Shown here piece after piece: positions 49,189 to 64,000 of a stretch of 64,000 bases of DNA. The notes beneath the pieces were generated by a model. The model was not told where the DNA came from, made no database searches, and saw nothing but the letters and a program-made list of their open reading frames with translations. The stretch's first letter is position 1. Each line of letters begins with the position of its first letter. Source of the stretch: a virus; the IMG/VR virus record IMGVR_UViG_3300031578_000005, positions 1 through 64,000 of that record, one strand, 5' to 3'. Both the position numbers and the translations under genes were made by a program.

Positions 49189-49468
49189 ATGTCCAAAAAC
49201 AATAAAAATAGATTATTGGAAATAATGAAGCTAGTTAATCCTTCATTTATTACCGAAGATTTTAATGACAAGCCATTACCAACGAGCTGTGAAAAATTCA
49301 TCAGCAGTACAATACTCAAATTCACGTATAGATACTCCAGTTGAGTTCGAAGACGCATTTAAAGTATGGTTTAGCTCAACGGGTTTTCATCCAGAAAAAA
49401 GTAATTTAACCATATCACAAGCACAGGTATTTGTAAAAAAAGTCATGCAAGAATTGGGATATAAATAA
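49189..49468 (+). pseudogene. Frameshifted late gene with MSKNNKNRLLEIMK leader
   Basis: ATG 49189 follows GTATTTATA; C-terminus is in the 49265..49468 frame. Confidence 0.55.
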
Positions 49469-49494
49469 TTATTTTAAAAATTATTTGCAGTTAT

Positions 49495-49526
49495 TGTAAC
49501 ATTTACTATCTTTGCTACGTATTTAT
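49495..49526 (+). promoter_or_regulatory. Putative promoter of tRNA operon 1 (TGTAAC-N17-CGTATTTA)
   Basis: Near-identical to 51500-51530; motif recurs at least 9 times. Confidence 0.7.
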
Positions 49527-49745
49527 AAAAAGGAGTATAAATTCCATCCATTGTTTTTACGTGAATGGAATGTAAGCGGCAAATGCTAATCCTGATTGAG
49601 AATATACTAAAGTAAGGAATAATCATATTGTCGGGTTCAGGGATTGAATCCTACATTAAGCAAAAACGGGATGAGGCGTTGCCATTAGGTGAGTCTATGA
49701 CCCCCGAAGCCCAACCCGTCAGTTTTGCTGTGGGTGGTAGTTCAC
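49527..49745 (+). mobile_element. Non-autonomous IS200/IS605-type remnant (omegaRNA/right end only)
   Basis: Ends gaagcccaaccc...gggtggtagTTCAC; TTTAT immediately 5'. Confidence 0.65.
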
Positions 49746-49797
49746 AAAATGCAAGCCTATTATTTAGGCAGTTAATTAAATTGAAGAATTAGAAATT

Positions 49798-49872
49798 ATG
49801 AAAAATTTTACACATACTCAGCCCCAACCGCAACAACATCCACAAGAAGTTGAATGGGGAAAATATGTTTAA
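49798..49872 (+). CDS. Leader peptide 1 MKNFTHTQPQPQQHPQEVEWGKYV
   Basis: 10 of 11 consecutive codons are Pro/Gln/His; precedes terminator and Pro/His/Gln tRNAs. Confidence 0.85.
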   Translation: MKNFTHTQPQPQQHPQEVEWGKYV

Positions 49873-49901
49873 AAATTTTAAGAATATTTTAAAATGAACA
49901 T

Positions 49902-49931
49902 AGACCCCATTCGAAAGAGTGGGGTTTTTTT
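49902..49931 (+). terminator. Attenuator terminator 1
   Basis: accccattc-gaaa-gagtggggt plus T run. Confidence 0.85.
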
Positions 49932-49984
49932 GTAACAAAAAATTTGATATTACGTATAGTTGTTCTTTGAAATATAATTTAAAA

Positions 49985-50058
49985 CTGGGAGTGGGAAAAT
50001 TGGTTAATCCGCTTGCCTTGGACGCAAGAGACTGCTGAATCGTACTCAGCCTCCCAGA
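49985..50058 (+). tRNA. tRNA-Pro(TGG)
   Basis: Cloverleaf; cttgc-cTTGGac-gcaag; atypical T-loop atcgtac. Confidence 0.88.
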
Positions 50059-50067
50059 CAATTTTAT

Positions 50068-50156
50068 CGAGTAGTAGCTCTGTAGCTGGTAGCAGTCCCG
50101 TCTTGGAAACGGGTGGAATATAAAATCCCTCGCAGGTTCGAACCCTGCCTATTCGA
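50068..50156 (+). tRNA. tRNA-Pro(TGG) with long variable arm
   Basis: cgagtag/ctattcg; cccgt-ctTGGaa-acggg; extra arm gga-atataaaa-tcc. Confidence 0.8.
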
Positions 50157-50214
50157 CTGGTAGTCAAAGAGTTATATTGATTTCTACTTTGACTGTAAAA
50201 AAATCCATATATAT

Positions 50215-50290
50215 GGTGGTATTAGTGTAGTGGTTAGCACGATACTCTGTGAAAGTATTAGCACCAGTTCAAATCTGGTATATCACCCCA
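50215..50290 (+). tRNA. tRNA-His(GTG)
   Basis: G-1:C73, atact-ctGTGaa-agtat, encoded CCA. Confidence 0.92.
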
Positions 50291-50295
50291 AATAT

Positions 50296-50369
50296 TACTC
50301 TCTGGTGTAATTGGTTAACATTTTGGAATTTGACTCCAAAGATTGTAGGTTCAAGTCCTACGAGAGTAA
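50296..50369 (+). tRNA. tRNA-Gln(TTG)
   Basis: tactctc/gagagta; ttgga-atTTGac-tccaa. Confidence 0.88.
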
Positions 50370-50375
50370 CAATAT

Positions 50376-50458
50376 TGTCCTCTGGCAGAATGGCTATTGC
50401 ATCGCCCTTTGAAGGCGACACCCGAAACGGTTTACAGGTTCGAATCCTGTGAGGACTA
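50376..50458 (+). tRNA. tRNA-Gln(TTG) with long variable arm
   Basis: tcgcc-ctTTGaa-ggcga; extra arm ccg-aaa-cgg. Confidence 0.8.
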
Positions 50459-50466
50459 CACTATAT

Positions 50467-50537
50467 TACCAAATGGTGTAATGGTAACACCCAATCCTCT
50501 GAAGGTTGTGTTCTTGGTTCGAATCCAAGTTTGGTTA
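50467..50537 (+). tRNA. tRNA-Gln(CTG)
   Basis: caatc-ctCTGaa-ggttg. Confidence 0.85.
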
Positions 50538-50628
50538 CTAAGATAGTTGAATCAATTATTATGAATGCATAAGAATTATTAATGGGCTTAGAACTTGGAA
50601 TTAAATATTAATTCATTATATTTGCAAA

Positions 50629-50856
50629 ATGGAAGCAGAAGAATTAATAAAAAAAATAAAGAAGTTTGTCGAAGAACTTGATAATAACTTCGAATCAATA
50701 CTTATTCCAACTAAGTATGATCCTAATGATATACAGTATGATGTTTCTTTTATTATGATGGAGAAAGTCGAAGATGATAGAAGTACGCCAAGATTCATTG
50801 TAAATGTAACTGATTTAAATAAAGATGATAATGTCAAAACTAAGAGTGGGAAATAA
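50629..50856 (+). CDS. Hypothetical protein
   Basis: ORF overlapping a TAnnTTTG motif upstream. Confidence 0.55.
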   Translation: MEAEELIKKIKKFVEELDNNFESILIPTKYDPNDIQYDVSFIMMEKVEDDRSTPRFIVNVTDLNKDDNVKTKSGK

Positions 50857-50969
50857 AGAAAACGCTAAAATAAATGGTGAATGGGGCGACCATGTAAGAA
50901 AATGGGGCAAATTTTTCACAGCTAAATTACGTAGAAATATTGATAAACAAATAATTAAAAAAGAGTACG

Positions 50970-51377
50970 ATGAATTATAATTTATTCTTAGATGATATAA
51001 GAGTTCCTAGAAATGTATACTCATATATACATAATCCCATATACGCTATGGATGAGTGGATAATTGTTCGAAACTATGATGATTTTGTAAAATACATTGA
51101 AAAAAATGGTATGCCCGAAAAAATTTCTTTTGATCATGATTTATCAGCAGAACATTATGACCCGGACTTATATGGTAGTGAAACATATGATGAAGTATAT
51201 GATCAATTTGAAGAAAAAACCGGATATGATTGTGCTAAATGGCTCATTAATTACTGTATTGAAAATAAATTAGATTTGCCCAATGAAATCCTAATTCACT
51301 CGATGAATATTACCGGTGGGTTGAACATCAAATCATTATTTGATACTTACAATAAATCATTAAAAGTAAATTCGTGA
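50970..51377 (+). CDS. Cyclic-phosphate-processing receiver-like domain protein
   Basis: LFLDDIR.P, ISFDHDL, KTGYDCAKWL, HSMN. Confidence 0.75.
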   Translation: MNYNLFLDDIRVPRNVYSYIHNPIYAMDEWIIVRNYDDFVKYIEKNGMPEKISFDHDLSAEHYDPDLYGSETYDEVYDQFEEKTGYDCAKWLINYCIENKLDLPNEILIHSMNITGGLNIKSLFDTYNKSLKVNS

Positions 51378-51499
51378 TTTGCAAATTGCAAATTATTATG
51401 TGTTGAGATTATAAGTACTAAAATTTATTACTAGAACATATTAATAATCAACAACATATAAATTAAACTAAAAATAATTTAAAAAAAGTTTGCAGATAT

Positions 51500-51530
51500 T
51501 GTAACATTTACTAACTTTGTTGCGTATTTA
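51500..51530 (+). promoter_or_regulatory. Putative promoter of tRNA operon 2 (TGTAAC-N17-CGTATTTA)
   Basis: Recurrent motif 46 nt upstream of leader 2. Confidence 0.7.
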
Positions 51531-51576
51531 GATAAAACGAATTAAGAATTTTTGAATAATTAAATAAATAATACAA

Positions 51577-51666
51577 ATGAAAAATTTACTCGACATATTG
51601 ATGGTAGTCTTAGCAGTTGACCTATTATGGGCAGATGCAGAGGATAAACTATGTTTAGTCGGGTAA
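51577..51666 (+). CDS. Leader peptide 2 MKNLLDILMVVLAVDLLWADAEDKLCLVG
   Basis: 18 of codons 4-23 are Leu/Val/Asp/Ala/Glu/Trp, matching the downstream tRNAs. Confidence 0.82.
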   Translation: MKNLLDILMVVLAVDLLWADAEDKLCLVG

Positions 51667-51693
51667 TGAAAAATTACACTCCTTTCTTAATTG

Positions 51694-51727
51694 AAAAACC
51701 CGACAACTAAAAATGGTCGGGTTTTTT
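51694..51727 (+). terminator. Attenuator terminator 2
   Basis: aaaaacccgac-loop-gtcgggtttttt. Confidence 0.85.
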
Positions 51728-51808
51728 GTTTTTATAGAAAGGATGTTCTTTGACATGTTGGAAATTTAAAAATAATTGGAGTGGGTTTGTAATCCACTCC
51801 TAAATAAC

Positions 51809-51878
51809 GACTGCGTAGTATAATGGCTAGTATTTCTCACTGTCTATGAGAGGGCGGGGTTCGAATCCCACGTAGTCG
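51809..51878 (+). tRNA. tRNA-Asp(GTC)
   Basis: tctca-ctGTCta-tgaga, G73. Confidence 0.85.
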
Positions 51879-51882
51879 GCAT

Positions 51883-51956
51883 GGTGCGTTTGGCAAGTTG
51901 GTTAAGCCGTAAGACCTTCAATTTTACATTCATGGGTTCGAGTCCCATACGCACTA
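51883..51956 (+). tRNA. tRNA-Glu(TTC)
   Basis: taaga-ccTTCaa-tttta (C33). Confidence 0.8.
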
Positions 51957-51962
51957 CGATAT

Positions 51963-52034
51963 GTTCGGTTCGAATAATGGTCAGTTCACAAAATTTTCAA
52001 TTTTGTTATAGCGGTTCAAATCCGCTACCGAGTA
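51963..52034 (+). tRNA. tRNA-Glu(TTC)
   Basis: caaaa-ttTTCaa-ttttg. Confidence 0.85.
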
Positions 52035-52173
52035 CATTTAAAAACATACGGTTTAGGACCGTTATGGTTTCGACCATAGAAGAGTGACGATGTTCGCTAC
52101 TACGTCACTCTTTAATTTAAAAATCTTGACAATACCGCTATTATTTAATACATTTGCAATAAATCTTGAAATC

Positions 52174-52665
52174 ATGGCATTGGATGTTAATAGTGAAAAG
52201 GGTAAAGAAAGCGTTCGTCAAGAAGCTGAAATGTTAAAAGGTGTTGAAAAATGCTGGAATTATAATGTCGTTGTGACAAATAAAAATAAAGAGGCAATTT
52301 GTGATGGTTTTTTAGTAAAAAAAAGAGAAGTTGTTGCAATATTTGAAAGTAAATGTAGGGACCTATCATATAATGAATTGGAAAATTATGGTTCATGGCT
52401 TATTACATATGATAAAATAAAAACCTGTAAATATTTATCTGAATTATTGAAAGTACCATTTATTGGTTTCTTGTATCTAATCAAAGACAATATCACACTT
52501 TTTTGGAAAATCACTGATTCAGATGGAAAGTACTTATTTGAATTTAATCATAATAAAACATTAACGCAAGAAACAATTAATGGTGGCAAAATATACAGAG
52601 ATAATGCATATTTGCCATTTTCAGAAGCTAAATTTGTTCACAAAGAAGAAATTATGTTTCCATAA
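52174..52665 (+). CDS. PD-(D/E)XK-family nuclease-like protein
   Basis: CDGFL...FESKCR. Confidence 0.6.
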   Translation: MALDVNSEKGKESVRQEAEMLKGVEKCWNYNVVVTNKNKEAICDGFLVKKREVVAIFESKCRDLSYNELENYGSWLITYDKIKTCKYLSELLKVPFIGFLYLIKDNITLFWKITDSDGKYLFEFNHNKTLTQETINGGKIYRDNAYLPFSEAKFVHKEEIMFP

Positions 52666-52715
52666 TGAATGATATTACAAACACAATTAATTAATTTGTT
52701 TATAATATAGTACAT

Positions 52716-52786
52716 GGGGAATTGGCGTAAAGGTAGCGTATTTGGCTTACATCCAATTGGCAATAGTTCGATTCTATTATTCCCTA
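52716..52786 (+). tRNA. tRNA-Val(TAC)
   Basis: ggggaat/attccct; ttgg-ctTACat-ccaa. Confidence 0.82.
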
Positions 52787-52939
52787 CTTCGTCTGGAAAA
52801 TCCAGAAATAAATTAGCAGTTATCGGCTTATTCATCGATAAACATTCGTTATCGGTTATTAAGACGATAAAGCTATCTGGAAAATTCAGATAATTTCACA
52901 AAATCATTGTTTTATTTAAAATAAACTCAGTATATTTAT

Positions 52940-53089
52940 AACTTGTCAGTATAAGACATTAAAACCTCGTTAGGGACTAACGAGTACACGAGTGGAGTAA
53001 AAGTAAGACTTCTAGCTTTTCGGAGCAGTAAGCAAATTGCCGTGAAACTCGAAGCTCAATCCATCACGAAGTGTGGATGGGTAGTTCAC
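52940..53089 (+). mobile_element. Second non-autonomous IS200/IS605-type remnant (omegaRNA/right end only)
   Basis: Ends gaagctcaatcc...ggatgggtagTTCAC; TTTAT immediately 5'. Confidence 0.65.
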
Positions 53090-53173
53090 ATAGGTATCGT
53101 CTAAAGGTAAGACGCTTCCCGTCCGAGGGAAGAGATGGGAACTGCAGATAAGGTTCAATTCCTCCTGCCTATG
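53090..53173 (+). tRNA. Atypical tRNA-like gene (8-nt anticodon loop, identity undetermined)
   Basis: ataggta/tgcctat acceptor, gtct/agac D-stem, cttcc-cgtccgag-ggaag, ggttcaattcc. Confidence 0.55.
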
Positions 53174-53178
53174 CAAAT

Positions 53179-53262
53179 GCTCTTATGGTGCAACTGGAGT
53201 GAGACACAGCAGTCTTAGAAACTGTTTCTTAAATGGTGTGGGTTCGAGTCCCACTAAGAGCA
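53179..53262 (+). tRNA. tRNA-Leu(TAG)
   Basis: gcagt-ctTAGaa-actgt. Confidence 0.85.
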
Positions 53263-53939
53263 CAATTTACTTCTAACTTATTATTGATTACATTAATAAC
53301 AATATTTAAATATTTTATTGAGGTTTGTTCTTTGAAATACTTTTGTTGGGAGACATCGATTATACATAATTCAATTCCTTGTTCTAAACAGGCTTGAAAC
53401 TTACGTTGGTCATTATTTTGGATTTGACCTAATTTATCTTCACCAAATATTGGTTCGTAATGGAAAATACCATTAAGTTCAAATGCTAATTTAAGTGAGG
53501 GAATGTAAATATCTAATTCTGAATTGATGGTTGTTTTATTATTGAATAATATTTCTAAATTTCGGTATTGTTTGGTTAATTCAGTTTCAAGATATTGCTC
53601 AAGTTTCGACCTACGATTACCATTTGTTTTGTGTTTATTATTATATGTGGCAGCACATGAACGTGAACAAAAGTGATTGGTAGATTTTTTTTTATCTGAT
53701 AATTGAATCGTAATATTGTTGCCACAATTAGTACATTGAATTATTTCTTTTTTACCTTGTGACGATTGATAACAATTTAATGAACAATATTTACCACTAA
53801 ATTTAGCACTTTTACATGGGATTTGTTTTATTTTACGTTTTGTTAAATAAAAAATATTTGCACAGCCATAACATTTGCATGGTAATTTATCTAATGATTT
53901 TGATGTTAAAAACTCTTGTTCTGTATATAATTTAATCAT
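53229..53939 (-). CDS. Zinc-finger PD-(D/E)XK putative homing endonuclease
   Basis: Several CxxC/FCS.SC motifs, ELDIYIP..KLAFELNG..HY; antisense within the tRNA cluster. Confidence 0.75.
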   Translation of the reverse strand: MIKLYTEQEFLTSKSLDKLPCKCYGCANIFYLTKRKIKQIPCKSAKFSGKYCSLNCYQSSQGKKEIIQCTNCGNNITIQLSDKKKSTNHFCSRSCAATYNNKHKTNGNRRSKLEQYLETELTKQYRNLEILFNNKTTINSELDIYIPSLKLAFELNGIFHYEPIFGEDKLGQIQNNDQRKFQACLEQGIELCIIDVSQQKYFKEQTSIKYLNIVINVINNKLEVNCALSGTRTHTI

Positions 53940-54088
53940 ATAATGATGTTTATAATAAATACTTATAATATTCATTTTCTGTACGTATCATCAGTACAAA
54001 ATTTATCGAAATAAAAAACTGCTTATTCTGGGGGATGATAGTAAGTTCCAGACACTAAGGTAGGGGTGATAGTCTACATAGGCGTAAT

Positions 54089-54162
54089 GGGGTCGTAGCT
54101 CAATTGGCGAGAGCACCGCACTTGCAATGCGGAGGTTAGGGAATCGTGCTCCCTCGACTCCA
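54089..54162 (+). tRNA. tRNA-Ala(TGC)
   Basis: G3:U70, ccgca-ctTGCaa-tgcgg; atypical T-loop. Confidence 0.9.
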
Positions 54163-54216
54163 CAAATGACTGTAAATCAACAATTTACAGTCATTATTTA
54201 AAGTAATCATTTACAT

Positions 54217-54303
54217 GGCTCAGTGGTGGAAATGGCAAGACACGCAGGACTTAAAATCCTGTCCACCGAAAGGTGGGTGTGGGTTCGACTCCCATCTGAG
54301 CTA
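54217..54303 (+). tRNA. tRNA-Leu(TAA)
   Basis: cagga-ctTAAaa-tcctg, long variable arm. Confidence 0.92.
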
Positions 54304-54392
54304 CAATTACCGGATATTGCCAGATAAAATTTTAGTTTATTGATTATCAAATATTTAATAAATTATATTTTACCAGATATTGCCGGATACAT

Positions 54393-54466
54393 GGCTCTAT
54401 AACCCAAATGGTAGAGGTGGTGTCTTCAAACGGCATTTGTTTTCAGTTCGAATCTGAATAGAGCTA
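54393..54466 (+). tRNA. tRNA-Leu(CAA) lacking the long variable arm
   Basis: ggctcta/tagagct; gtgtc-ttCAAac-ggcat. Confidence 0.75.
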
Positions 54467-54494
54467 CAACAGTATTTATAATAAAACTAAGGTT

Positions 54495-54980
54495 ATGAAT
54501 TATAAATTATTTTCTTACTTAATGATGATACTGGTGTTTGTATCATATGTTGTATTCATCTGGTCAAGATATGGCATACAAAAATCAATATCTGCCAGTT
54601 ATTATGTATTGCCTGAAAAAATCAATGTGTTATTCACATTATTTTGTTGGGGATTTGCATTTCCTGCGATAATTGTTGCACAAACGCCATTAATGTTTTT
54701 GGCAGGTTCTGCAATTGTTTTTGTTGGTGCTGCCGCAAGATTTAAAGAAAAACTAACAAAATCTGTTCATATGATAAGTGCTACAATTGGTGTTATTTTA
54801 AGTCAGGCATCAATATTTTTTGATTATCACCTGTGGCATCTTAATGCAATATTTGTATTATCGTCATTAATTATATTAGGTGTGCTATATTTTAAACACA
54901 TCGATAAATATATATGGTGGATTGAAATTTTTGCATTTTCAACAATATGTATTGCATTAGGTATTAATTCAATATTTTAA
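54495..54980 (+). CDS. Multi-pass membrane protein
   Basis: Five to six hydrophobic segments; SISASYY motif. Confidence 0.75.
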   Translation: MNYKLFSYLMMILVFVSYVVFIWSRYGIQKSISASYYVLPEKINVLFTLFCWGFAFPAIIVAQTPLMFLAGSAIVFVGAAARFKEKLTKSVHMISATIGVILSQASIFFDYHLWHLNAIFVLSSLIILGVLYFKHIDKYIWWIEIFAFSTICIALGINSIF

Positions 54981-54985
54981 AATAC

Positions 54986-55056
54986 ACGTCTTTGTTGTAA
55001 TGGTAGCATAAATCTCTCCAAAAGATTTAGTACTTGTTCGAATCGAGTAAGACGTG
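54986..55056 (+). tRNA. tRNA-Trp(CCA)
   Basis: aatct-ctCCAaa-agatt, G73. Confidence 0.85.
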
Positions 55057-55118
55057 CAAAATAAAGTTTATTGAAACAATTACTTTTGCTGTTCGAGATT
55101 GTTTTTATGTTAAAATAA

Positions 55119-55475
55119 ATGATTATGAATAGCAAAACAGATAATTTTTCAGATATTGAAATAATTAAAATACTTTCAGAGTGTAAATCATTTAGAGAGG
55201 TTTTAATTAAAATCGGTTATAGTAGTAATGGAAGCGGTGGTTATAGTCTACTCAAACAACAATTAAAAAAACGTGGCATTCAAATACCTAAATATCATTA
55301 TTATGGTGATGGAAAAAAACGTAGCTTATATACATTAGATGAAATTTTAGTTGAGAATTCAACATATACTGCAAGAGGTCGATTAAAAAAACGTTTGGTT
55401 AAAGAAGGTATGTTAGAATATAAATGTGTTTCTGATAACACAATACGTAAATGGCTTAAATTATATGAAAAATAA
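55119..55475 (+). pseudogene. Internally deleted HNH-endonuclease-like gene
   Basis: L.EILVENS.Y....LK.RL..EG..EYKC joined directly to VSDNTIRKW; HNH core missing. Confidence 0.6.
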
Positions 55476-55489
55476 ATGTGCTAATACAT

Positions 55490-55560
55490 GCGTCTATCGT
55501 TCAACGGTAAGACAACTGCTTCCAAACCAGTTAATGAGGGTTCGATTCGTTCCCGGTGTG
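55490..55560 (+). tRNA. Degenerate tRNA-Trp(CCA), probable pseudogene
   Basis: ttCCAaa loop; mismatched acceptor and T stems. Confidence 0.5.
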
Positions 55561-55689
55561 CTAAATCGAATTTAAATTTTAGTGGAATAATTTCAGCTTT
55601 GATTTTCATTTGTAACAAAACCAATTTTTTTTCGTATATATTACCAATAATATTTGTTAATTAACACAAAATGATTTAAATTTGCTATT

Positions 55690-56406
55690 ATGTATATAAT
55701 CTCAAAAAAGAAAGATTTTTATGATGGTGTTGTCTCGACAATGGGTATTGATAAGTCTATTGTTTTTAATCGAGATGATGTTGAAATTGGAGAAAATGAA
55801 TATCCAAAATTATTTAGCCACTCCAAAGGTTATTGGAATTCATTAATGAATGATACCATTAATAATTTACATCACCACAATATAAAAAAAGAGCATAAAG
55901 GCGATTATCAAGCATATAACTATTTTGTTATTGGATTTTGTGGAAAACTTTATTTGGGTATGAAGTTATATACAAAAAGTCAGAACATCTTTGATGGTTT
56001 AACAACAAAAATAATTTATGATATTGACTTAATTACTGAAATTATTGAAAACACCGGCTATCGAAGCAATTTAATTGATGAAATTAATTATGTTCGTAAT
56101 TATAATGCATTAGACATTTTTAGAAAATTTAATACACCTGTATTTGTATATGATAATGACTATAACCGAATCTCGATCAATGATAGAAATGAGCATAAGT
56201 TCATTATTAACGCCAATATATACGAATATGAATTTTATAAAATCTTTGATAGTTTTCATGCATTCCAAGAAATTCAAATGTTTATTAGCGGTGTATTGGG
56301 TAGTGGTGAAAAGGAAATAATCAAAATTACAGATAAAGATAAAATCGCTCAACATGGCTTTGACTATAAATATAGTTTTAGAAAAGATAAAGAAAATAAA
56401 AAATAA
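55690..56406 (+). CDS. Hypothetical protein
   Basis: KDFYD...IGFCGK.Y...FQEIQMFI..VL...KI..HGFD...SFR. Confidence 0.75.
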   Translation: MYIISKKKDFYDGVVSTMGIDKSIVFNRDDVEIGENEYPKLFSHSKGYWNSLMNDTINNLHHHNIKKEHKGDYQAYNYFVIGFCGKLYLGMKLYTKSQNIFDGLTTKIIYDIDLITEIIENTGYRSNLIDEINYVRNYNALDIFRKFNTPVFVYDNDYNRISINDRNEHKFIINANIYEYEFYKIFDSFHAFQEIQMFISGVLGSGEKEIIKITDKDKIAQHGFDYKYSFRKDKENKK

Positions 56407-56413
56407 GTTCTTT

Positions 56414-56776
56414 GGGGGTGACCGGATTTGACAGCATGTTAGACTGGTAATGTAAGCAGGTAGTAGTTGAATCAGGCTACTTTAAAAAGGTTCAAAGTTA
56501 TAAACGCAAACAATTCCGAGGACATTATGTCCATTCCGACTTCACACTTAATTGTGGGAAGAAGTGCATTTGCAGAGAAAACTGAACTCGCATTTGCTGC
56601 ATAGGAAATAACTAATACAGTTAAGAACTCCTGAGTTGAAAGGATAAATTTAATACAGTTTCATGTTTGAACTGGTAGAATCAATCAATACTTTGTCGGT
56701 TTAGAGAAATCGAATAAACCTGTAGAAAACGTATTAATCACATGTGTGGACGTGGGTTCGAATCCCACTACCTCCA
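56414..56776 (+). ncRNA. ssrA: tmRNA
   Basis: GGGGGTGAccGGaTTtGAC 5' end; GACGTGGGTTCGAATCCCACTACCTCCA 3' end; tag ORF 56506-56604 ending AFAA*. Confidence 0.93.
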
Positions 56777-56796
56777 CTTAAGTAATTATAAATAAG

Positions 56797-57231
56797 ATGA
56801 TTATGAGTACAGCAAGAAGTAGATTTATTGAAGCGATTGATGTTTGGATTAAGTCTGACGACGGAGAAGCCTACCTTAAAGACGAACGAATTCGACATGA
56901 AATTCAAATTGGAAGATATAAACGTTTTGATGACTGGTTGAAATGCAATGACTTTGATCTGCTAATATATCGACTAATTTTAAAGCATGACATAAGCTAT
57001 CGTGAAAAATATTATCATAATGGATTCGAACCCGGACCAAATAATTTATTACAATTCATTTTTGACTATATCGACAATAAATTCGAACCAATTGCCGTAG
57101 CTGAACTTGATTGCGAATTTTCAAATAATATCTGGTTATTTAAAGGATATTATTTTCAATGTATTTATGGTCAAGGAGCAATATTTAAAATATATAATAA
57201 AGCAGATATGCGAGAAATAATATCAATATAG
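56797..57231 (+). CDS. Hypothetical protein
   Basis: ORF. Confidence 0.65.
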   Translation: MIMSTARSRFIEAIDVWIKSDDGEAYLKDERIRHEIQIGRYKRFDDWLKCNDFDLLIYRLILKHDISYREKYYHNGFEPGPNNLLQFIFDYIDNKFEPIAVAELDCEFSNNIWLFKGYYFQCIYGQGAIFKIYNKADMREIISI

Positions 57232-57383
57232 ATGAAAAAAATCAAGCAACAAAAAAACGATGACTGTAATTGTGGTAAGTCAGTTAAAATAACAGAAAGA
57301 AAAAAATTAATATATAAGAACAATAAGAAATGAAAGAAAATTTTAAAGTCTTGTAATGCAACTCAAATGTTGCTACAAGAATA

Positions 57384-57713
57384 ATGAAAGTAAAAAAAAT
57401 TGTAGATTCAACAACAAATCGTTATGTATTCAATCGTGCGTATAAAGAATATTTAGAACGCAAAGGTAAAATTCGTTGCTCTTATTGCCAATTTCATAAA
57501 AATGAAAATGATAATAGAAAATGGTATGGTGGAATAAAACATAATGAATTTTATGATGATATGTTGACATGTTATGGTGGTGTTAAAGAAACTCATACTA
57601 GATATCCTAATTGGAAATTAATTTCTAAAAATAAGAAACAGTGGATGAATAAAGGAATTAAAATCACTGAAAAATATGATTTAAAACGTATTTATATTGA
57701 AATAAAATTTTGA
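57384..57713 (+). CDS. Hypothetical protein
   Basis: CSYC..H..EN motif. Confidence 0.65.
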   Translation: MKVKKIVDSTTNRYVFNRAYKEYLERKGKIRCSYCQFHKNENDNRKWYGGIKHNEFYDDMLTCYGGVKETHTRYPNWKLISKNKKQWMNKGIKITEKYDLKRIYIEIKF

Positions 57714-57724
57714 GGTAATCACAT

Positions 57725-57798
57725 GGCGACATCGTTCAATGATAGGACAGCTCTCTCATAAGGAGTTGATACGAGTTCAATTCTCGTTATCCCAACCA
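57725..57798 (+). tRNA. tRNA(CAT), Met or Ile2, weak acceptor stem
   Basis: gctct-ctCATaa-ggagt, encoded CCA, three acceptor mismatches. Confidence 0.6.
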
Positions 57799-57845
57799 TT
57801 GGTCATTTTTGTACTAAGATAGTATTTATATTTAAAAGTACATTT

Positions 57846-58499
57846 ATGGCAAGAAAGGAAAAAACATATCATTTTATTTACAAAACGACCAATCTATTGA
57901 ATGACAAATATTATTATGGAATGCATTCCACTTATGATTTGAATGATGGATATTTAGGTAGTGGTAAAAGGTTGAGATATTCAATAAATAAACACGGAAA
58001 AGAAAATCATGTTAGAGAAATTATTGAATTTTTACCAAATTATAATGAATTGATTAAAAGAGAAGAAGAAATTGTAAATTTAAATGAAATTGCAAAAGAA
58101 AATTGTTTAAATTTAAGAGTTGGAGGTTCTGGTGGTTTGAATGGATTATCTAAGGAATCGTTAATGAAGATTAGAATTGCATCGTCTAATTATATGAAAA
58201 GTTTGTGGAAAAATGGTGGTGAAGAATATCGAAATAAATTCAGTAAAATTAACACAATAAATCTAACAAATGCACATAAAAACAATAAAATAAAATATGA
58301 TAATTTTAAAAACAGAAAACATCGAAATGAAACGATTGAATTAATGAAAAAAAAGAAAATTGGTTTTGGACGTGGAAGCGATAATTCTCAATATAATACC
58401 TGTTGGGTTACAAGAAACGGAATAAATAAAAAAATAAAAAAAGAGAAACTGTCCGAATTCATTAAATTGGGATGGATTAATGGAAGAAAATTTAAATAA
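57846..58499 (+). CDS. GIY-YIG (Seg-like) homing endonuclease
   Basis: FIYKTTN...YYGMH...YLGSG. Confidence 0.85.
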   Translation: MARKEKTYHFIYKTTNLLNDKYYYGMHSTYDLNDGYLGSGKRLRYSINKHGKENHVREIIEFLPNYNELIKREEEIVNLNEIAKENCLNLRVGGSGGLNGLSKESLMKIRIASSNYMKSLWKNGGEEYRNKFSKINTINLTNAHKNNKIKYDNFKNRKHRNETIELMKKKKIGFGRGSDNSQYNTCWVTRNGINKKIKKEKLSEFIKLGWINGRKFK

Positions 58500-58522
58500 T
58501 CCTAAGTTGGCTCTGGTTTAAT

Positions 58523-58960
58523 TTAAAATTTAACAATACAATTTTTATTTTTAAAATCAAAACTTAGACCATTAATATATAATGAACTGCCCTTTTGAAG
58601 ATTTGCGTCATTATCGATAATAAATTTCCATTCGAAGTCATTGATATTTTTTGGTGTTTCTTGTTTTTGTTCATCATTTTGTTTATCAAATAATTTTAAT
58701 AAAAACGTGCCTTCGACGCTTTCAACATCAACAATAAAATTTTCAACCCCCATGTCATTTAACCAGAAAGAAATTCCCCAATTAACAACAATATCACTTT
58801 CAGTAACTTCACTATCAAATTCATTTGTGAATGCACTGTAATTGTAAAAAGATGAATTAGTTAGCCTTTCTTTAAAATGAAATCTATCATCATTCATTAT
58901 ATATGATTCATTGAGAAATTTCTGTATTTCCTCAAAAATTATAGTTTCACTTAACTTCAT
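58523..58960 (-). CDS. Hypothetical protein with IIFEEIQKFLNE leader
   Basis: ORF, late motif upstream. Confidence 0.7.
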   Translation of the reverse strand: MKLSETIIFEEIQKFLNESYIMNDDRFHFKERLTNSSFYNYSAFTNEFDSEVTESDIVVNWGISFWLNDMGVENFIVDVESVEGTFLLKLFDKQNDEQKQETPKNINDFEWKFIIDNDANLQKGSSLYINGLSFDFKNKNCIVKF

Positions 58961-59065
58961 AACAAATATATTTTAAATATAAATACTATTAATTCAATTA
59001 AAATTAATATATTTGTTTTCTGTAACAAATATAAAAACTTTACGTATATAATTTAAACATTAAAA

Positions 59066-60163
59066 ATGAAATTACTTGAAAAAATTAATTGGGAAGTCCT
59101 AGATACATATATTGAAAATGGATTGATTATGTCCAATAAGCATCCTGAATACGATATTTGGATTTTAAATTACACACCAAAAACACAATCAAAAAAGTTA
59201 TGGGATGTATATACTATATCATGTCGTGGATTAATTATCGATGTTGATGGTAATATTTTAGCCCGACCTTTTCAAAAATTTAAAAACTTTGAGGAACATG
59301 ATTCTTCAGAAATTGATATGTCATTACCTTTTGAAATATTTGAAAAGCGTGATGGATCATTAATTATATTATTTTACTACGAACTCAGAATGGAATGGAT
59401 TGTTGCATCAAGAGGTTCATTTGCTTCAGAACAATCAATTGAAGCTAAAAAAATATTAGAGTCAAAAGAAAATGCTTTTAAATTCTTAGACATAAAAAAT
59501 ACGTATTTATATGAAGTTCATTATGGCGAAAATAGAATTGTGGTAGATTATGGTGACTTAAGAGACGTGGTGTTATTAACTGTTATTAATTCAAAAACCG
59601 GCTATGAATTATCTTATGATGCAATGAATGAACAATATTCAAATTATTTTGCAATTGTCAAAAGGTTTGATATAAATATTAATTCACTGGATGATTTAAA
59701 AAAACTTGAAGAAGAAAATAAAGAAGGTTTTGTTGTTAAATTTTCGAACAATTTTAGAGTTAAAGTAAAATTTAGTGAATACATTAGATTGCATGGAATA
59801 TTAACAAATGTTTCAAACATAATTGTCTGGGAACATTTGAAGAATAACTATGATTTCGACACATTATTAGACAGAGTTCCTGACGAATTTTATTCATGGC
59901 TTAACAAAACCATTGATAAATTAAAAGGTAATTTCAATGAAATTGAAAGATTATCATTAAAAGAATTTATTAGAATTTACTATATTAATGAGATATCTAC
60001 TCGCAGAGAATTTGCAATGGAAGCAAAGAAGTGTAAATATCGATCGATCTTATTTAAATTGTATGATAAAAATCAATACGATGAAATTATCTGGAAAATG
60101 ATTAGACCAGTTTATAGTAAGCCGTTTTCTCGTCATTTTGAAAATAGTTTGGAAATTAATTAG
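59066..60163 (+). CDS. RNA ligase 1 (T4 Rnl1-like)
   Basis: CRGLI, RPFQKF.N, EKRDGSL (KxDG), SRGSF, EGFVV, RVKVK. Confidence 0.9.
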   Translation: MKLLEKINWEVLDTYIENGLIMSNKHPEYDIWILNYTPKTQSKKLWDVYTISCRGLIIDVDGNILARPFQKFKNFEEHDSSEIDMSLPFEIFEKRDGSLIILFYYELRMEWIVASRGSFASEQSIEAKKILESKENAFKFLDIKNTYLYEVHYGENRIVVDYGDLRDVVLLTVINSKTGYELSYDAMNEQYSNYFAIVKRFDININSLDDLKKLEEENKEGFVVKFSNNFRVKVKFSEYIRLHGILTNVSNIIVWEHLKNNYDFDTLLDRVPDEFYSWLNKTIDKLKGNFNEIERLSLKEFIRIYYINEISTRREFAMEAKKCKYRSILFKLYDKNQYDEIIWKMIRPVYSKPFSRHFENSLEIN

Positions 60164-60204
60164 TCCATTATACATTGTCATAGTATTTATATTAAAATAA
60201 TATT

Positions 60205-60999
60205 ATGGCATATGTATATAAACATCTCAGAAAAGATAATAATGATGTATTCTATATTGGCATTGGATTATCTAAAAATTTTAAACGAGCATATTCTAAA
60301 TGTAATAGAAATAACTATTGGAAAAATATTGTGAATAAAGTAGATTATATTATTGAAATTATTCATACAAATATTACATGGGAAGAAGCATGTAATATTG
60401 AAATAAAATTAATAAAAGAATATGGTCGAAAAGATTTGAATGAGGGTGAATTGGTTAATATGACTAACGGTGGAGATGGTATTGTTGGGTTAATTCAGAC
60501 TGATGAACATAGAAGAAAAAATAGTGAAGCAAATAAAGGAAGACCTAAAAGTACCAAACATATTGAAAAATTCAAAAATAGAATTCAGTCTGATGAAACC
60601 AAACGAAAAATTAGTTTAAAGAATAAAGGAAGAATTTGTACTGATGAAACCAAACGAAAAATTAGTGATAAATTAAAAAATAAGATGATTGGTGATAAAA
60701 ATCCGTTCTTTGGTAAAGAACATACTAATAAAGCTAAAGAACAAATAAGTAATTCCTTGAAAGGACGCAAATTGTCCGAAACAACAAAAAATAAAATATC
60801 TGAATCAAATAAAGGAAAAACTCGCATAATTTCCGAAAAATCAAAAATTAAAATGAGTATTTCTGCAAAACATAGAAACATTAGACCACCATCAAGAAAA
60901 GGAACGTGTTGGGTAACAAAAAATGGTGTAACTAAATCAATTAAAATTAATGATTTAGATTTTTACATTTTTGATGGTTGGGTAAGAGGACGTAAGTAA
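60205..60999 (+). CDS. GIY-YIG homing endonuclease with NUMOD3 repeats
   Basis: YVYKH...FYIGIG, N.T.GGDG, DETKRKIS repeats. Confidence 0.85.
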   Translation: MAYVYKHLRKDNNDVFYIGIGLSKNFKRAYSKCNRNNYWKNIVNKVDYIIEIIHTNITWEEACNIEIKLIKEYGRKDLNEGELVNMTNGGDGIVGLIQTDEHRRKNSEANKGRPKSTKHIEKFKNRIQSDETKRKISLKNKGRICTDETKRKISDKLKNKMIGDKNPFFGKEHTNKAKEQISNSLKGRKLSETTKNKISESNKGKTRIISEKSKIKMSISAKHRNIRPPSRKGTCWVTKNGVTKSIKINDLDFYIFDGWVRGRK

Positions 61000-61082
61000 T
61001 TATATAATTTTCTTTACTATTTATTAGTATGGATATTATTAAAATAATAAAAGAAGAAATTGAAACACTGATGTAGTATTGG

Positions 61083-61177
61083 TTATAACGGTTGGGTGTA
61101 TGAGAAGGTTTGCTTAGATGAACTTTCAAATTATCCACAACTGCTGATAGCAAACTTTCTTATACACCTTGTTATAC
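61083..61177 (-). repeat. attC-like site D
   Basis: TTATAAC...ggtgtatgagaaggtttgct / agcaaactttcttatacacc...GTTATAC. Confidence 0.8.
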
Positions 61178-61292
61178 ACAGTACGGTTTAATTAGGTAGA
61201 AACTAAATTGAAAACGAAATAAAAACTTTTTAAAAATGTGTGATGGAAAATTTAATTCTGAATATTTATATATAAAATAAAAACGAAATACT

Positions 61293-61685
61293 ATGAGTAA
61301 AGAAATTAGACAAATGATTGATAAAGTTAAGAACTTTAAGCAATTTGTGAATGAACAAAGAGTTCCATATAACGAATTACAAAATATGGTTAAAGATTTC
61401 TTGAATAAAGAAATTCAATTTACAATGGATGATATTCAAAAATATGTTGTTGGTAACATTGAAAGTATTGATTATCACACAAATGGTAGAGGGTTTGAAG
61501 TTAGTGTTGGTAATTATAAAAGTGGTGACGGTGTTAAAGATGGTAGGGGGTCATTATCAATATTTCCAGATGAAAATAAAATTATCTTTTCACATAATGA
61601 TTTTAAACCACACCCAGTTAGTGGTTTGAATGAATTTACGAATAATTTTTTTCAATTTATTAGTAAAATAGATTTCAAAAAATAG
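61293..61685 (+). CDS. Cassette-borne late protein with MSKEIRQMIDKVKNFKQFVNE leader
   Basis: Between sites D and E, with its own TATTTATA motif. Confidence 0.72.
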   Translation: MSKEIRQMIDKVKNFKQFVNEQRVPYNELQNMVKDFLNKEIQFTMDDIQKYVVGNIESIDYHTNGRGFEVSVGNYKSGDGVKDGRGSLSIFPDENKIIFSHNDFKPHPVSGLNEFTNNFFQFISKIDFKK

Positions 61686-61775
61686 TGAATATTTTTTGAA
61701 TGTAAAAATGTGTGGTGGAAATCTTTAAAAAGTTTTTTACATAGAACTTAATTTGAAACACTAATATAGTATTGT

Positions 61776-61866
61776 GTATAACGTTGAGTGTATGAAACGT
61801 AGCATGCACAACACTTAATATAAACCACTAACCTTGATTGGCTATGTTTTATACACGTTGTTATAA
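61776..61866 (-). repeat. attC-like site E
   Basis: GTATAAC...gtgtatgaaacgtagc / gctatgttttatacac...GTTATAA; tgtgtataac is complementary to gttatacaca of site D. Confidence 0.8.
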
Positions 61867-61976
61867 CCAGTACGGTAAAATTACCACAAATGTTAGATTG
61901 AAACACCGAACAAAAACTTTTAAAAATGTGTGACGGTAATATAATTACACTACTATTTATATTAAAATATTATTAT

Positions 61977-62299
61977 ATGGAAAATGAAATGAGAAAACTG
62001 ATTGACCAAGTTAAGAATTTTGGTAAATCATTAAACGAAAATGTTGGTAATACAACATACGCAATATATTTAGGAACTGATATTATTTATAATCATTTAT
62101 CTAATGAAAGATTAAAATCAGTACTCTATTCATTGGTGAAGATTTAGGTGAAGATTTAGGTGATTACATTATTGTTCAAAACGGAACAAACCACACCAAA
62201 CCAGCAGATGAATTAGGATGGGATTTGTCAAACGTAAAACCTTTTGATAACATTAATTCACTACGTACCAAAATAGATAATATTGCCAACAGAATTTAA
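61977..62299 (+). pseudogene. Frameshifted cassette gene with MENEMRKLIDQVKNFGKSLNE leader
   Basis: Stop at 62147 near the ggtgaagattta duplication; another frame continues to about 62299. Confidence 0.55.
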
Positions 62300-62374
62300 T
62301 TTTTTATTGTGGATTGGAGATTTTTAAAAGTTTTTGTAACAAAATGCTAATTAGAACGTATAATGTAGTATTGG

Positions 62375-62440
62375 TTATAACTATTATATATAAAACATAA
62401 CACTTAACTAATTGATTGTAAACATTAAAAACAAGTCAAC
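62375..62440. repeat. Array-terminal (attI-like) site, divergent copy 3
   Basis: tggttataac is complementary to gttataacca of site E, then TAACTA..ATATAAAAC resembling 745 and 32464. Confidence 0.5.
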
Positions 62441-62503
62441 TTTAGGAAAGTATAAAAAATTTTTTAAAGTTAAACGTAGTATTTAAAAATAATTTAAAAT
62501 TTT

Positions 62504-62533
62504 TGTAACATTTATTAGTTTATTACGTATTTA
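62504..62533 (+). promoter_or_regulatory. Putative promoter of tRNA operon 3 (TGTAAC-N16-CGTATTTA)
   Basis: Recurrent motif 32 nt upstream of leader 3. Confidence 0.7.
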
Positions 62534-62565
62534 TGATTAACTTTGTAGAATTAAAATTTGAAATA

Positions 62566-62667
62566 ATGAAAAAAGGTAACACATATTATAAAAAGTATTA
62601 TTATAAACATTATGTTTGTAAGACTGGCAATACTGTGTTGTTATCTGAAAAGGAAACTGATAATTAA
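62566..62667 (+). CDS. Leader peptide 3 MKKGNTYYKKYYYKHYVCKTGNTVLLSEKETDN
   Basis: 9 of 10 consecutive codons are Tyr/Lys; precedes terminator and Tyr/Lys tRNAs. Confidence 0.85.
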   Translation: MKKGNTYYKKYYYKHYVCKTGNTVLLSEKETDN

Positions 62668-62684
62668 AGATAAACGATACTAAC

Positions 62685-62723
62685 AAAAAACCCGGTCTTA
62701 ATTTAATAAGACCGGGTTTTTTT
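62685..62723 (+). terminator. Attenuator terminator 3
   Basis: aaaaaacccggtctta-atttaa-taagaccgggttttttt. Confidence 0.88.
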
Positions 62724-62743
62724 ATGCTTATTTTCATTGTAAT

Positions 62744-62824
62744 TGGGTGGTAGGTAAGTGGTTAAAACGGATTGACTGTAAATCAATTGCTTCGGCTTCG
62801 GGGGTTCGAATCCCTCCCGCCCAA
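62744..62824 (+). tRNA. tRNA-Tyr(GTA)
   Basis: attga-ctGTAaa-tcaat, variable arm gc-ttcg-gc. Confidence 0.88.
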
Positions 62825-62831
62825 CAATAAT

Positions 62832-62915
62832 GCATCCATGCCAGAGAGGTTATGGACTGGACTTTTAATCCAGACTCCGAACGGAGTAACGTAGATTCGA
62901 GTTCTACTGGATGCA
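62832..62915 (+). tRNA. tRNA-Lys(TTT) with long variable arm
   Basis: ctgga-ctTTTaa-tccag; extra arm actcc-gaac-ggagt. Confidence 0.8.
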
Positions 62916-62968
62916 CAGTGGGGACTGTTTATAATTTTCATAGTACATGAAAGCGTAGAAAATTAAAT

Positions 62969-63042
62969 GACTCCATAGCTCAATTGGTAGATGTAACTGG
63001 CCTTTAACCAGTGGGTTCTGGGTTCGAGTCCCAGTGGGGTCA
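62969..63042 (+). tRNA. tRNA-Lys(TTT)
   Basis: actgg-ccTTTaa-ccagt (C33). Confidence 0.82.
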
Positions 63043-63126
63043 CTAACTAAACTTTAATGAACTGAAGTTTTGTCAACCACCAATCATGATTAGGTTCATA
63101 GGCGGGGAAGATTTATAAGTTCAAAC

Positions 63127-63194
63127 GCCAACGATTCAGGGTATGGACGGCTCTGTAAAAGCCCAGCCTGAAGGTTCGAGTCCTTCCGGTGGCA
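63127..63194 (+). tRNA. Compact 68-nt tRNA-like gene with GTA (Tyr) anticodon
   Basis: gccaacg/cggtggc, short D arm, ggct-ctGTAaa-agcc, canonical T arm. Confidence 0.6.
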
Positions 63195-63325
63195 CAATGT
63201 TTAATTAAGTAGCTATCAATTTATTATGATAACTACTTAATTAAAATATTTAAATTACTTGCATTTTTATTTAAGATTAATTATCTTTGTTGAAAATAAC
63301 TTTATTTTAATGCTTATGTATAAAA

Positions 63326-64000
63326 ATGGCAAATAATAAAAAGAAAGTAACTACTGTAGTTACTACAACAACAGAAATCATTAATAATCCCATCAATGAA
63401 AAAACTCAAATAATCTGTATTCTTGATAGAAGTGGTTCTATGTCAAGTATTATGTCAGACAGTATTGGTGGATTTAATACTTTTCTTAAACAGCAAAAGG
63501 AATTAAAAGACGAAGCAACATTAACAATTGCATTATTTGATGACAAATATGAAATGCTTTATGATGATGTTGACATTAAAAAAGTTGATGAACTCACCAA
63601 TAAGATTTGGTATCCTCGTGGAACTACTGCATTATATGATGCAATTGGAAAGACAATTAATACCGTTAAAGCAAATCATTTAAAATCTGGCAACGAAAAA
63701 CCCACCAAAGTACTGGTATGTATTGTAACTGATGGACATGAAAATGCCAGTAGCGAATATGGACATGACATGATTAAAAAACTCATTAAAGATTGTGAAG
63801 ATGATGATTGGAATTTTATTTATTTTGGCGCAAACCAAGATGCATTTGCAGTAGGAAATTCACTTAATATTAGTGGAAATAATACATACACTTATACATC
63901 TACCAGTACTGGTGTTCAAGATATGTCATTTATATTAAGCAATACTGTAACTAGCTATCGTTCAATGAATACTAGTGATAGTAATTTTAAATATTCCTCC
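63326..64000 (+). CDS. von Willebrand factor A domain protein (runs off the window)
   Basis: ILDRSGSM (MIDAS), PRGTTALYDAIG, VTDGHENAS. Confidence 0.88.
   Translation, partial: MANNKKKVTTVVTTTTEIINNPINEKTQIICILDRSGSMSSIMSDSIGGFNTFLKQQKELKDEATLTIALFDDKYEMLYDDVDIKKVDELTNKIWYPRGTTALYDAIGKTINTVKANHLKSGNEKPTKVLVCIVTDGHENASSEYGHDMIKKLIKDCEDDDWNFIYFGANQDAFAVGNSLNISGNNTYTYTSTSTGVQDMSFILSNTVTSYRSMNTSDSNFKYSS

Follow-up and report, generated by a model that had tools for sequence, protein, structure and literature searches.

Leader-peptide attenuators of enterobacteria include the ilvGMEDA leader (Ile, Leu and Val), the thr leader (Thr and Ile), trpL, hisL, leuL and pheL, and the synthetase genes pheST of Escherichia coli are likewise under leader-peptide attenuation. 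The transfer RNA (tRNA) genes of phages, such as the tRNA cluster of T4, are commonly seen as matching codon usage or as replacing host tRNAs that have been depleted, and we know of no leader-peptide control of T4-like tRNA clusters. Here, we describe tRNA arrays that each lie behind a short leader open reading frame (ORF) and a predicted intrinsic terminator in the 128.5-kb viral record IMGVR_UViG_3300031578_000005, the first 64 kb of which constitute the window that was analyzed (29% G+C). Based on the organization of these leader-array units, we consider it likely that each is a trp-type, ribosome-mediated transcription attenuator providing feedback control of tRNA supply.

Like the enterobacterial leaders (ilv, thr), the phage units appear to combine a translated short ORF carrying regulatory codons, mutually exclusive 1:2, 2:3 and 3:4 pairings, an intrinsic terminator, and several amino acids per leader. 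Unlike the ilv, thr, trp and his leaders, they would regulate tRNA genes rather than biosynthesis or synthetase genes. They further differ from the enterobacterial leaders in that the signal would be removed by the tRNAs themselves, in that up to 8-9 amino acids are represented in one leader, and in being phage-borne and arranged as four parallel units. The features that characterize the trpL/hisL/ilvL class were found, namely a leader ORF 3' of a promoter, cognate codons, a terminator, a 2:3 antiterminator and a 1:2 partner (the last well paired in one family of relatives, at 97.6% of cells, without compensatory change), with tRNA genes downstream in place of biosynthesis or synthetase genes. 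It is the regulated genes that set the units apart from this class, and they are hence a variant of it rather than plain members. The pheST operon shares with the units an attenuation of the decoding apparatus, but it encodes the charging enzyme for one amino acid, whereas the genes here are tRNA genes in blocks. The T-box riboswitch (RF00230) similarly exerts terminator/antiterminator control in response to the state of a tRNA; however, it binds uncharged tRNA directly and without translation, whereas here a translated ORF would hold the specificity. A T-box was ruled out as the identity of these elements, since there was no match to RF00230 at E <= 1 in positions 47000-64000, and no other Rfam family matched the leaders. 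As in T4-type tRNA clusters, the tRNA genes lie beside homing endonucleases and RNA-repair genes, here an Rnl1-type ligase (59066-60163). No report of leader-peptide control of tRNA genes was found in literature searches at the level of listings and abstracts, and a term search of PMC8632094 (Brewer et al. 2021) matched neither 'tRNA gene' nor 'phage'.

Leader-array units and their alternative pairings

A preliminary description of the window reported three tRNA clusters built alike, with a promoter motif, a short ORF, an intrinsic terminator and then tRNA genes, and all of these features were located. ARAGORN predicted 18 tRNA genes and a transfer-messenger RNA (tmRNA) gene spanning positions 49985-63043 of the window, and Rfam added three further, weak tRNAs at 53090, 57725 (Met-CAU) and 63127 (Tyr-GUA-like). 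The island tRNAs form three arrays, each behind a promoter, a short ORF and a terminator that lies 24-83 nt from the first tRNA. According to ARAGORN and Rfam, array 1 (49985..50538) holds Pro(UGG) x2, His(GUG), Gln(UUG) x2 and Gln(CUG). Array 2 (51808..55057), within which protein genes are interspersed, holds Asp, Glu x2, Val, an odd tRNA-like gene at 53090, Leu(UAG), Ala, Leu(UAA), Leu(CAA) and Trp. Array 3 (62744..63194) holds Tyr(GUA), Lys(UUU) x2 and the weak Tyr(GUA)-like gene at 63127-63194. These arrays, together with the leaders, terminators, promoters and adjoining elements described below for the window, all lie on the + strand.

Leader 1 is a 24-codon ORF at 49798-49872 (MKNFTHTQPQPQQHPQEVEWGKYV) whose control codons 6-16 specify H T Q P Q P Q Q H P Q. 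Leader 2 (51577-51666; 29 codons; MKNLLDILMVVLAVDLLWADAEDKLCLVG) is rich in L, V, D, A, E and W. Leader 3 (62566-62667; 33 codons; MKKGNTYYKKYYYKHYVCKTGNTVLLSEKETDN) contains the control run YYKKYYYKHY at codons 7-16, and 62566 is its likelier start because the ATG of a longer, 44-codon ORF (62533) overlaps the promoter motif. The earlier proposal that the leader codons specify the amino acids of the downstream tRNAs was upheld when cognate residues were compared with an expectation derived from how often each amino acid occurs in the long ORFs of the record. Cognate residues numbered 10/23 in leader 1 (P, H, Q; expected fraction 0.07; p 1.8e-6), 21/28 in leader 2 (D, E, V, L, A, W; expected fraction 0.31; p 2.6e-6) and 13/32 in leader 3 (Y, K; expected fraction 0.15; p 3.4e-4).

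A fourth unit lies beyond the window in the same record, so the count of three units given in the preliminary description does not hold for the record. Leader 4 (record 72020-72145; 41 codons; MKTLTININISTSTSSRIGDSIFCSNFNGRIGNILSGFSFY) has the same promoter type at record 71957; a terminator comes next, and then tRNA genes for Cys, Asn, Ile, Ser, Phe, Gly, Ile, Gln, Thr, Arg x3 and Ser. With 35/40 cognate residues (p 1.3e-7), this unit is the strongest, out-of-sample test of the codon-match rule, which passed it. The true leader-array pairing gave the top score among 24 permutations. Of the record's small ATG ORFs of 20-50 codons (666 in all), no more than 3 attain the cognate fraction of any one leader: leaders 1 and 2 are each the sole ORF attaining their own fraction, 3 ORFs attain that of leader 4, and leader 3, which with its 62566 start is outside the set, has a value that none of the set attains. 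Jointly, the four arrays cover 19 amino acids, and only tRNA-Met (57725) is without a leader.

Segments capable of trp-type 1:2, 2:3 and 3:4 pairing were found in all four units. Terminator 1 (49902..49931) consists of a hairpin at 49902-49927, formed by segments 3 and 4 with a free energy (dG) of -16.8, and a T-run. Terminator 2 (51692..51728) has its 5' arm at 51694-51704 and its 3' arm at 51716-51726, separated by an 11-nt loop and followed by a T-run, and terminator 3 (62685..62728; hairpin 62685-62722) has a 16-bp stem (dG -22.3) and then a T-run. Terminators 1 and 3 were obtained from a standard terminator scan, and terminator 2, whose loop is beyond the limits of that scan, was found by a custom scan. 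The unit hairpins range in dG from -13.6 to -22.3, each with a T-run, and those in the window show a G+C-rich stem and an immediate run of at least 6 T.

As the preliminary description had indicated, a segment late in the leader ORF (segment 2) is complementary to the 5' arm of the terminator (segment 3), and this is the case in all four units. In leader 1, segment 1 is CCCCA (49822-49826) and segment 2 is GAATGGGG (49852-49859), which pairs with CCCCATTC. In leader 2, segment 1 is CTCGAC (51589-51594), and segment 2, GTCGGG (51658-51663), abuts the stop codon and pairs with CCCGAC. Segment 2 of leader 3, TAAGACTGG (62619-62627), pairs with CCGGTCTTA, and that of leader 4, ATCGGGTTTT, pairs with its segment 3, AAAACCCGA. 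The 2:3 duplexes have a dG of -13.4, -12.4 and -12.0 for leaders 1-3, and the four units range from -12.0 to -13.4 kcal/mol. When segments were drawn at random from the genome, the duplex was matched by 10, 11, 80 and 7 of 2000 for leaders 1-4, respectively.

In the unconstrained minimum free energy (MFE) structure of the full-length leader, segment 2 pairs with segment 1 inside the control codons, and the terminator is formed. Ribosome stalling was modelled by cutting the transcript before the 3' arm of the terminator and masking a 30-nt ribosome footprint for leaders 1, 3 and 4, with leader 2 folded in the run of 57 leaders described below. For leaders 1, 3 and 4, the 2:3 pairing formed with the A-site on the control codons and was absent with the ribosome near the stop codon. 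The folding under stalled and non-stalled ribosomes that had been suggested for these leaders thus gave the contrast expected of an attenuator.

Two further features lie close to the pairing segments. The sequence CTCCTTTCTT at 51680-51689, between the stop codon of leader 2 and its terminator, is kept in most family-2 units; we take it to resemble the 3' end of 16S rRNA, and it could also pair with the GAGGA of Glu-Asp codons, with no clear covariation seen. In unit 1, a second small ORF (MGKICLKILRIF; 49854-49892) starts at an ATG inside segment 2 and ends just before the terminator. An equivalent ORF is open in roughly half the units of family 1, and conservation of the pairing sequence probably gives rise to it as a by-product.

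Conservation of the units in related phages

Relatives were found among IMG/VR contigs via two neighbouring proteins, together with alignment of a 238-aa protein adjacent to the tmRNA. The metagenome loci are the best 80 of 257 relatives, and 70 of the 91 scanned sources hold a tRNA or tmRNA gene. A unit was scanned for as a terminator (a run of 4 T, with 5 T in 8 bases), a tRNA no more than 900 nt downstream and an ORF ending no more than 75 nt before the hairpin. This returned 107 terminator-plus-tRNA candidates, some of which were nested versions of a hairpin or the terminators of upstream genes. Candidates with an ORF aligning to one of the four leader families (score of at least 35) were kept, which gave 66 leaders, or 57 after identical DNA was removed (23 in family 1, 22 in family 2, 10 in family 3 and 2 in family 4). 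One complete phage of 365 kb carries leaders of all four families, and a 349-kb record holds a fourth-family leader and array with 36/40 cognate residues by a hand tally. The pattern scan for family 4 covered 80 of 103 stretches, most of which were chance matches in A+T-rich DNA. At least 7 loci hold a family-4 leader, and 3 of the 5 records checked (those other than L137 and L152) end before the array. No close relative was found in the annotated phage collection, in which 4 records each matched one tRNA-sized piece, and an exact search of viral contigs for the extended leader-promoter motif gave 0 matches.

The alternative pairings recur across the 57 leaders. The terminator is present in the MFE structure of all 57, and segment 2 is paired upstream in 56. 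In 57/57, at least one half of the control codons gave the 2:3 pairing when the ribosome was stalled on them, and a ribosome placed at the stop codon removed it in 47/57. Complementarity between segments 2 and 3 exceeded that of 95% of dinucleotide shuffles in 49 leaders. An alignment of 21 of the 22 family-2 leaders (L071, with a 13-codon insertion, was omitted) showed helices 1:2, 2:3 and 3:4 to be paired in 97.6, 96.8 and 96.1% of cells, respectively, and in no more than 65% when slid. Changes on both sides of a helix were seen in 0, 1 and 4 pairs (1:2, 2:3 and 3:4), these being few because the helices are nearly invariant. In L013, GGG has become GAG in both segment 2 and segment 4, and segment 3 carries the corresponding change, CTC for CCC.

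Coding potential of the leaders was assessed from single-base codon differences, scored as synonymous or non-synonymous in each frame. In family 2, the leader frame gave 798/994 synonymous/non-synonymous differences, compared with 190/1314 in the +1 frame and 381/1409 in the +2 frame. The corresponding values were 155/248, 62/321 and 55/339 in family 3, and 468/1087, 227/1558 and 524/1301 in family 1.

The content of the leaders follows that of their arrays. With the control region taken from codon 3 up to segment 2, 731 of 1088 control-region residues in the 57 leaders are cognate to the leader's own array, and 719 of 1088 control codons are decodable by an anticodon of that array. The mean cognate fraction is 0.65 for the own array (n=57) versus 0.08 when a leader is compared with a different array from its phage (n=62). 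Covariation of leader codons with tRNA content among relatives, which had been put forward as a check, was apparent for two amino acids. An Arg control codon occurs in 11/11 family-1 leaders with a tRNA-Arg versus 1/12 without one (Fisher 9.6e-6), and Val codons precede segment 2 in 18/18 family-2 leaders with a tRNA-Val (mean 3.7) versus 0/4 without (Fisher 1.4e-4). These Fisher values overstate the covariation, because kinship inflates them and only 2-3 evolutionary events underlie each. All 14 Arg control codons are CGN (CGC 10, CGT 2, CGA 2), the box of Arg(ACG)/Arg(UCG). Of 6372 Arg codons counted across the long ORFs of this record and of the fetched loci, 67% are AGA/AGG and 2.2% CGC.

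Proposed transcription attenuation and competing explanations

The promoter motif TGTAAC-N16/17-CGTATTTA occurs at 49495, 51500 and 62504 of the window, before each leader as the preliminary description had noted, but it is not specific to leaders. In a looser form, TGTAAC-N15-18-CGTAT, it is matched 9 times in the window, where 0.06 matches would be expected, and it occurs 47 times in forward and 2 times in reverse orientation in the 128.5-kb record. It is a phage-wide promoter type. What relatives keep beside their leaders is a different motif, TTTG-N18-21-TAnnTTTG, which we take to be the sigma-A promoter type of Bacteroidota. It is located 53-119 nt 5' of the ATG in 48/57 units, and its background frequency is 0.099 per kb per strand. 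In the window, TTTG-N19-TATCTTTG overlaps TGTAAC-N17-CGTATTTA before leader 1 (49484..49525), TTTG-N19-TAACTTTG overlaps TGTAAC-N17-CGTATTTA before leader 2 (51489..51530), and TGTAAC-N16-CGTATTTA precedes leader 3 (62504..62533). A Shine-Dalgarno site was found in 0 leaders and in 2/86 long phage ORFs, versus 4.5% of random positions. Because of the promoter type and the lack of Shine-Dalgarno sites, the host is suggested to be a member of the Bacteroidota.

In 44/57 units, no more than 45 nt separate the terminator from the first tRNA, and 3/57 have a recognisable promoter in this gap; read-through of the terminator is the only visible route to the array in most units because these gaps are short and rarely include a promoter. 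A TGTAAC-type motif follows the terminator in only 2/57 units. Such a motif, TGTAAC-N15-CGTAT, lies between terminator 1 and tRNA-Pro in the window (49931..49957), and another follows the family-2 terminator of L013. A conserved element, GTTCTTTGACATGTTGGAAATTT in unit 2 (51745..51767, between terminator 2 and the first tRNA), is present as GTTCTTTGACATGNTGGAAATTT directly 5' of the first tRNA in 22/22 family-2 units and 30/57 units overall, including positions 49960-49975 of the window. Near tRNAs, 28/30 copies sit after a leader terminator. The GTTCTTTGACAT element contains TTCTTTG, which bears a faint likeness to the TAnnTTTG box, and it may serve in processing or pausing or as a weak promoter. 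It was rejected as a general tRNA promoter, as it does not recur before internal tRNAs.

The preliminary description had proposed ribosome-mediated attenuation, and the fourth unit, the exclusive pairings, the 57 homologues, the enrichment in synonymous changes, the short gaps and the Arg and Val codons all fit that proposal. Sequence analysis directly supports the anatomy of the units, their codon-anticodon match, their conservation, their alternative pairings and, in most units, the lack of another promoter. We infer translation of the leader, termination and read-through, the direction of the response, and the agent that depletes the tRNAs. The trigger put forward in the preliminary description, starvation or cleavage by anticodon nucleases, is one possibility. 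Host RNA polymerase would initiate ~50-120 nt upstream of the leader (315 nt in the case of leader 1 of the window), and a ribosome would translate the short leader. A fast ribosome reaching the stop codon would cover segment 2, so that the 3:4 terminator would form and transcription would end before the tRNAs. If no ribosome were loaded, 1:2 pairing would allow the terminator to form as well. Scarcity of cognate aminoacyl-tRNAs would instead stall the ribosome on the control codons, leaving segment 2 free to pair with segment 3 and permitting polymerase to enter the array. Because the control codons are those that the array tRNAs read, the product of read-through would remove its own signal, a negative feedback by which supply would be set to decoding demand. 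The four units would thus serve as separate channels that together span 19 amino acids.

Other explanations of the units were weighed against this mechanism. Each leader and terminator might form a self-contained small transcript, either a micro-protein gene or a terminated small RNA, with the arrays transcribed from promoters of their own and no attenuation involved. The TGTAAC motifs at 49931 and after the L013 terminator speak for such promoters, as may the TTCTTTG-containing element before the first tRNA of 30/57 units. However, this element lacks a TTTG at a fixed distance upstream and is concentrated after leader terminators rather than before internal tRNAs, and gaps of 8-25 nt in many units of families 1 and 3 leave no room for a promoter. 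The matches between four leaders and their arrays, the Arg and Val codons that track the arrays, and the complementarity of segment 2 to the terminator arm would also go unexplained, and we regard independent transcription of the arrays as very unlikely. Somewhat different is the idea that the leaders are translated sensors of decoding speed whose output is not termination but the processing or stability of tRNA precursors, or the expression of embedded protein genes. Protein genes do occur in or just after the arrays, including cREC_REC (50970-51377) and a weak, below-cut-off PD-(D/E)XK-like match (52084-52665), and the conserved element beside the first tRNA could be a processing site. The window hairpins nonetheless have the form of intrinsic terminators, and the 2:3 pairing specifically takes the 5' arm of the stem, which is the geometry of termination control; an output of this other kind is, in our judgement, unlikely.

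The codon match could, in principle, be a chance or compositional coincidence, given that short ORFs are abundant in this A+T-rich DNA (the 666 ATG ORFs of 20-50 codons) and that Lys and Tyr are common in the phage. Against this stand p values of 1e-7 to 3e-4 per leader, the best score of 24 pairings, the no more than 3 of 666 ORFs that match any leader, the fit of the fourth unit, and the 57 conserved homologues with their synonymous drift, which leave coincidence close to refuted.

Several observations weigh against the attenuation mechanism or limit its reach. Because segment 2 was chosen as the sequence pairing best with the terminator arm, the folding result is partly definitional, and the shuffles are only a partial control. 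In family 3, the 2:3 pairing was lost at the stop codon in only 4/10 leaders and persisted in 6/10, and the duplex of leader 3 is the one matched by 80/2000 random segments. Family 1 gives a weak coding-frame signal, with 468/1087 in frame versus 524/1301 in the +2 frame. The promoter motif at 49931 is a possible route to array 1 that would bypass the attenuator, in which case attenuator 1 would be at best one of two inputs. Similarly, if the element at 51745-51767 is a weak promoter, attenuator 2 could control only part of the transcription of its array. Leader 1 of the window is parted from its promoter by an insert of ~250 nt (49540..49797), which is G+C-rich and strongly folding (-45 kcal/mol for 198 nt). 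On the neighbouring-protein tree, tRNA-Arg requires at least 3 changes and the Arg codon at least 2, and the Val tRNA and codon at least 2 each; independent pairs (one concordant and one unchanged for Arg, 2/2 concordant for Val) are too few for a sign test. Four leaders break the codon rule by having codons for which the array holds no tRNA: one for Arg in L086, one for His in L097, those for Ala and Trp in L067 and those for Asp in L052. About one third of control residues are non-cognate, some of them conserved (N, I, M and K in family 2; G, S, T and F in family 3), and array content was taken in part from relaxed tRNA calls (93 extra calls). Finally, the stretch is present in two DNA runs labelled soil metagenome, and no RNA runs containing it were listed.

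Genomic setting and biological meaning

The completeness of the record was estimated at 39%, implying a phage of ~330 kb. A cyclic-phosphate-processing receiver domain, cREC_REC (PF20274, E 1.2e-20), is encoded directly after array 1, the T4 Rnl1-type RNA ligase (PF09511, E 4e-16) is encoded upstream of the Tyr/Lys unit, and the PD-(D/E)XK-like match lies within array 2. Endonuclease-like genes interrupt or flank the arrays at 53229-53975 (- strand), 57846-58499 and 60205-60999 (NUMOD3). In the 365-kb relative (L011 8689-9327), an HNH-type gene, recognized by eye, is located between leader 1 and tRNA-Pro, where the terminator-tRNA gap is 765 nt. The insert between promoter and leader 1 has no Rfam match, and in relatives, which are without it, 53-69 nt separate the leader-1 promoter from the ATG. 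At record 77611-77661, inside the fourth array, lies a partial copy of 51 nt with 90% identity, and the insert may be a small mobile or structured RNA element.

Neither the tmRNA (56414-56777; Rfam 111.8 bits) nor tRNA-Met(CAU) (57725-57794) has a leader of its own. Met codons are frequent in family-2 leaders (17/22), and unit 2 might, because of them, run on through the tmRNA to tRNA-Met. The arrays are grouped by first codon base, with CCN and CAN decoders in array 1 (joined in relatives by a CGN-reading tRNA-Arg) and GAN, GUN and GCN decoders plus Leu and Trp in array 2, and this sorting is kept across relatives. Relaxed calls in relatives also include a CUA-anticodon tRNA, labelled 'Pyl' by ARAGORN (L017 13037-13111, L201 10087, L075 445 and L095); none was found in the window's record. 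This tRNA may act as an amber suppressor, and it hints that TAG may be recoded in some of these phages.

The Rnl1-type ligase, cREC_REC and tmRNA are the company that would be expected if the phage copes with damaged or depleted tRNAs. It is conceivable, though we advance this only tentatively and think it doubtful, that the four attenuators form a counter-defence alarm, in which each would sense the loss of particular host tRNAs and induce the matching replacements, with the RNA-repair genes (the cREC-domain protein and the Rnl1-type ligase) switched on as well. Under such an alarm, the loss could be due to anticodon nucleases (for example, against tRNA-Lys or tRNA-Tyr), to other defences that deplete tRNAs or to host shut-off by the phage itself, and the four channels would jointly follow the decoding of 19 amino acids in real time.

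If attenuation of this kind operates here, the phage would possess a direct feedback gauge of decoding capacity, and a textbook mechanism would be extended from amino-acid supply to tRNA supply. The virus would, in effect, measure translation elongation codon by codon, and depletion of one tRNA should induce its own array and not the others. The units would then represent compact, programmable sensors of tRNA availability, and short ORFs upstream of phage tRNA arrays are worth annotating.

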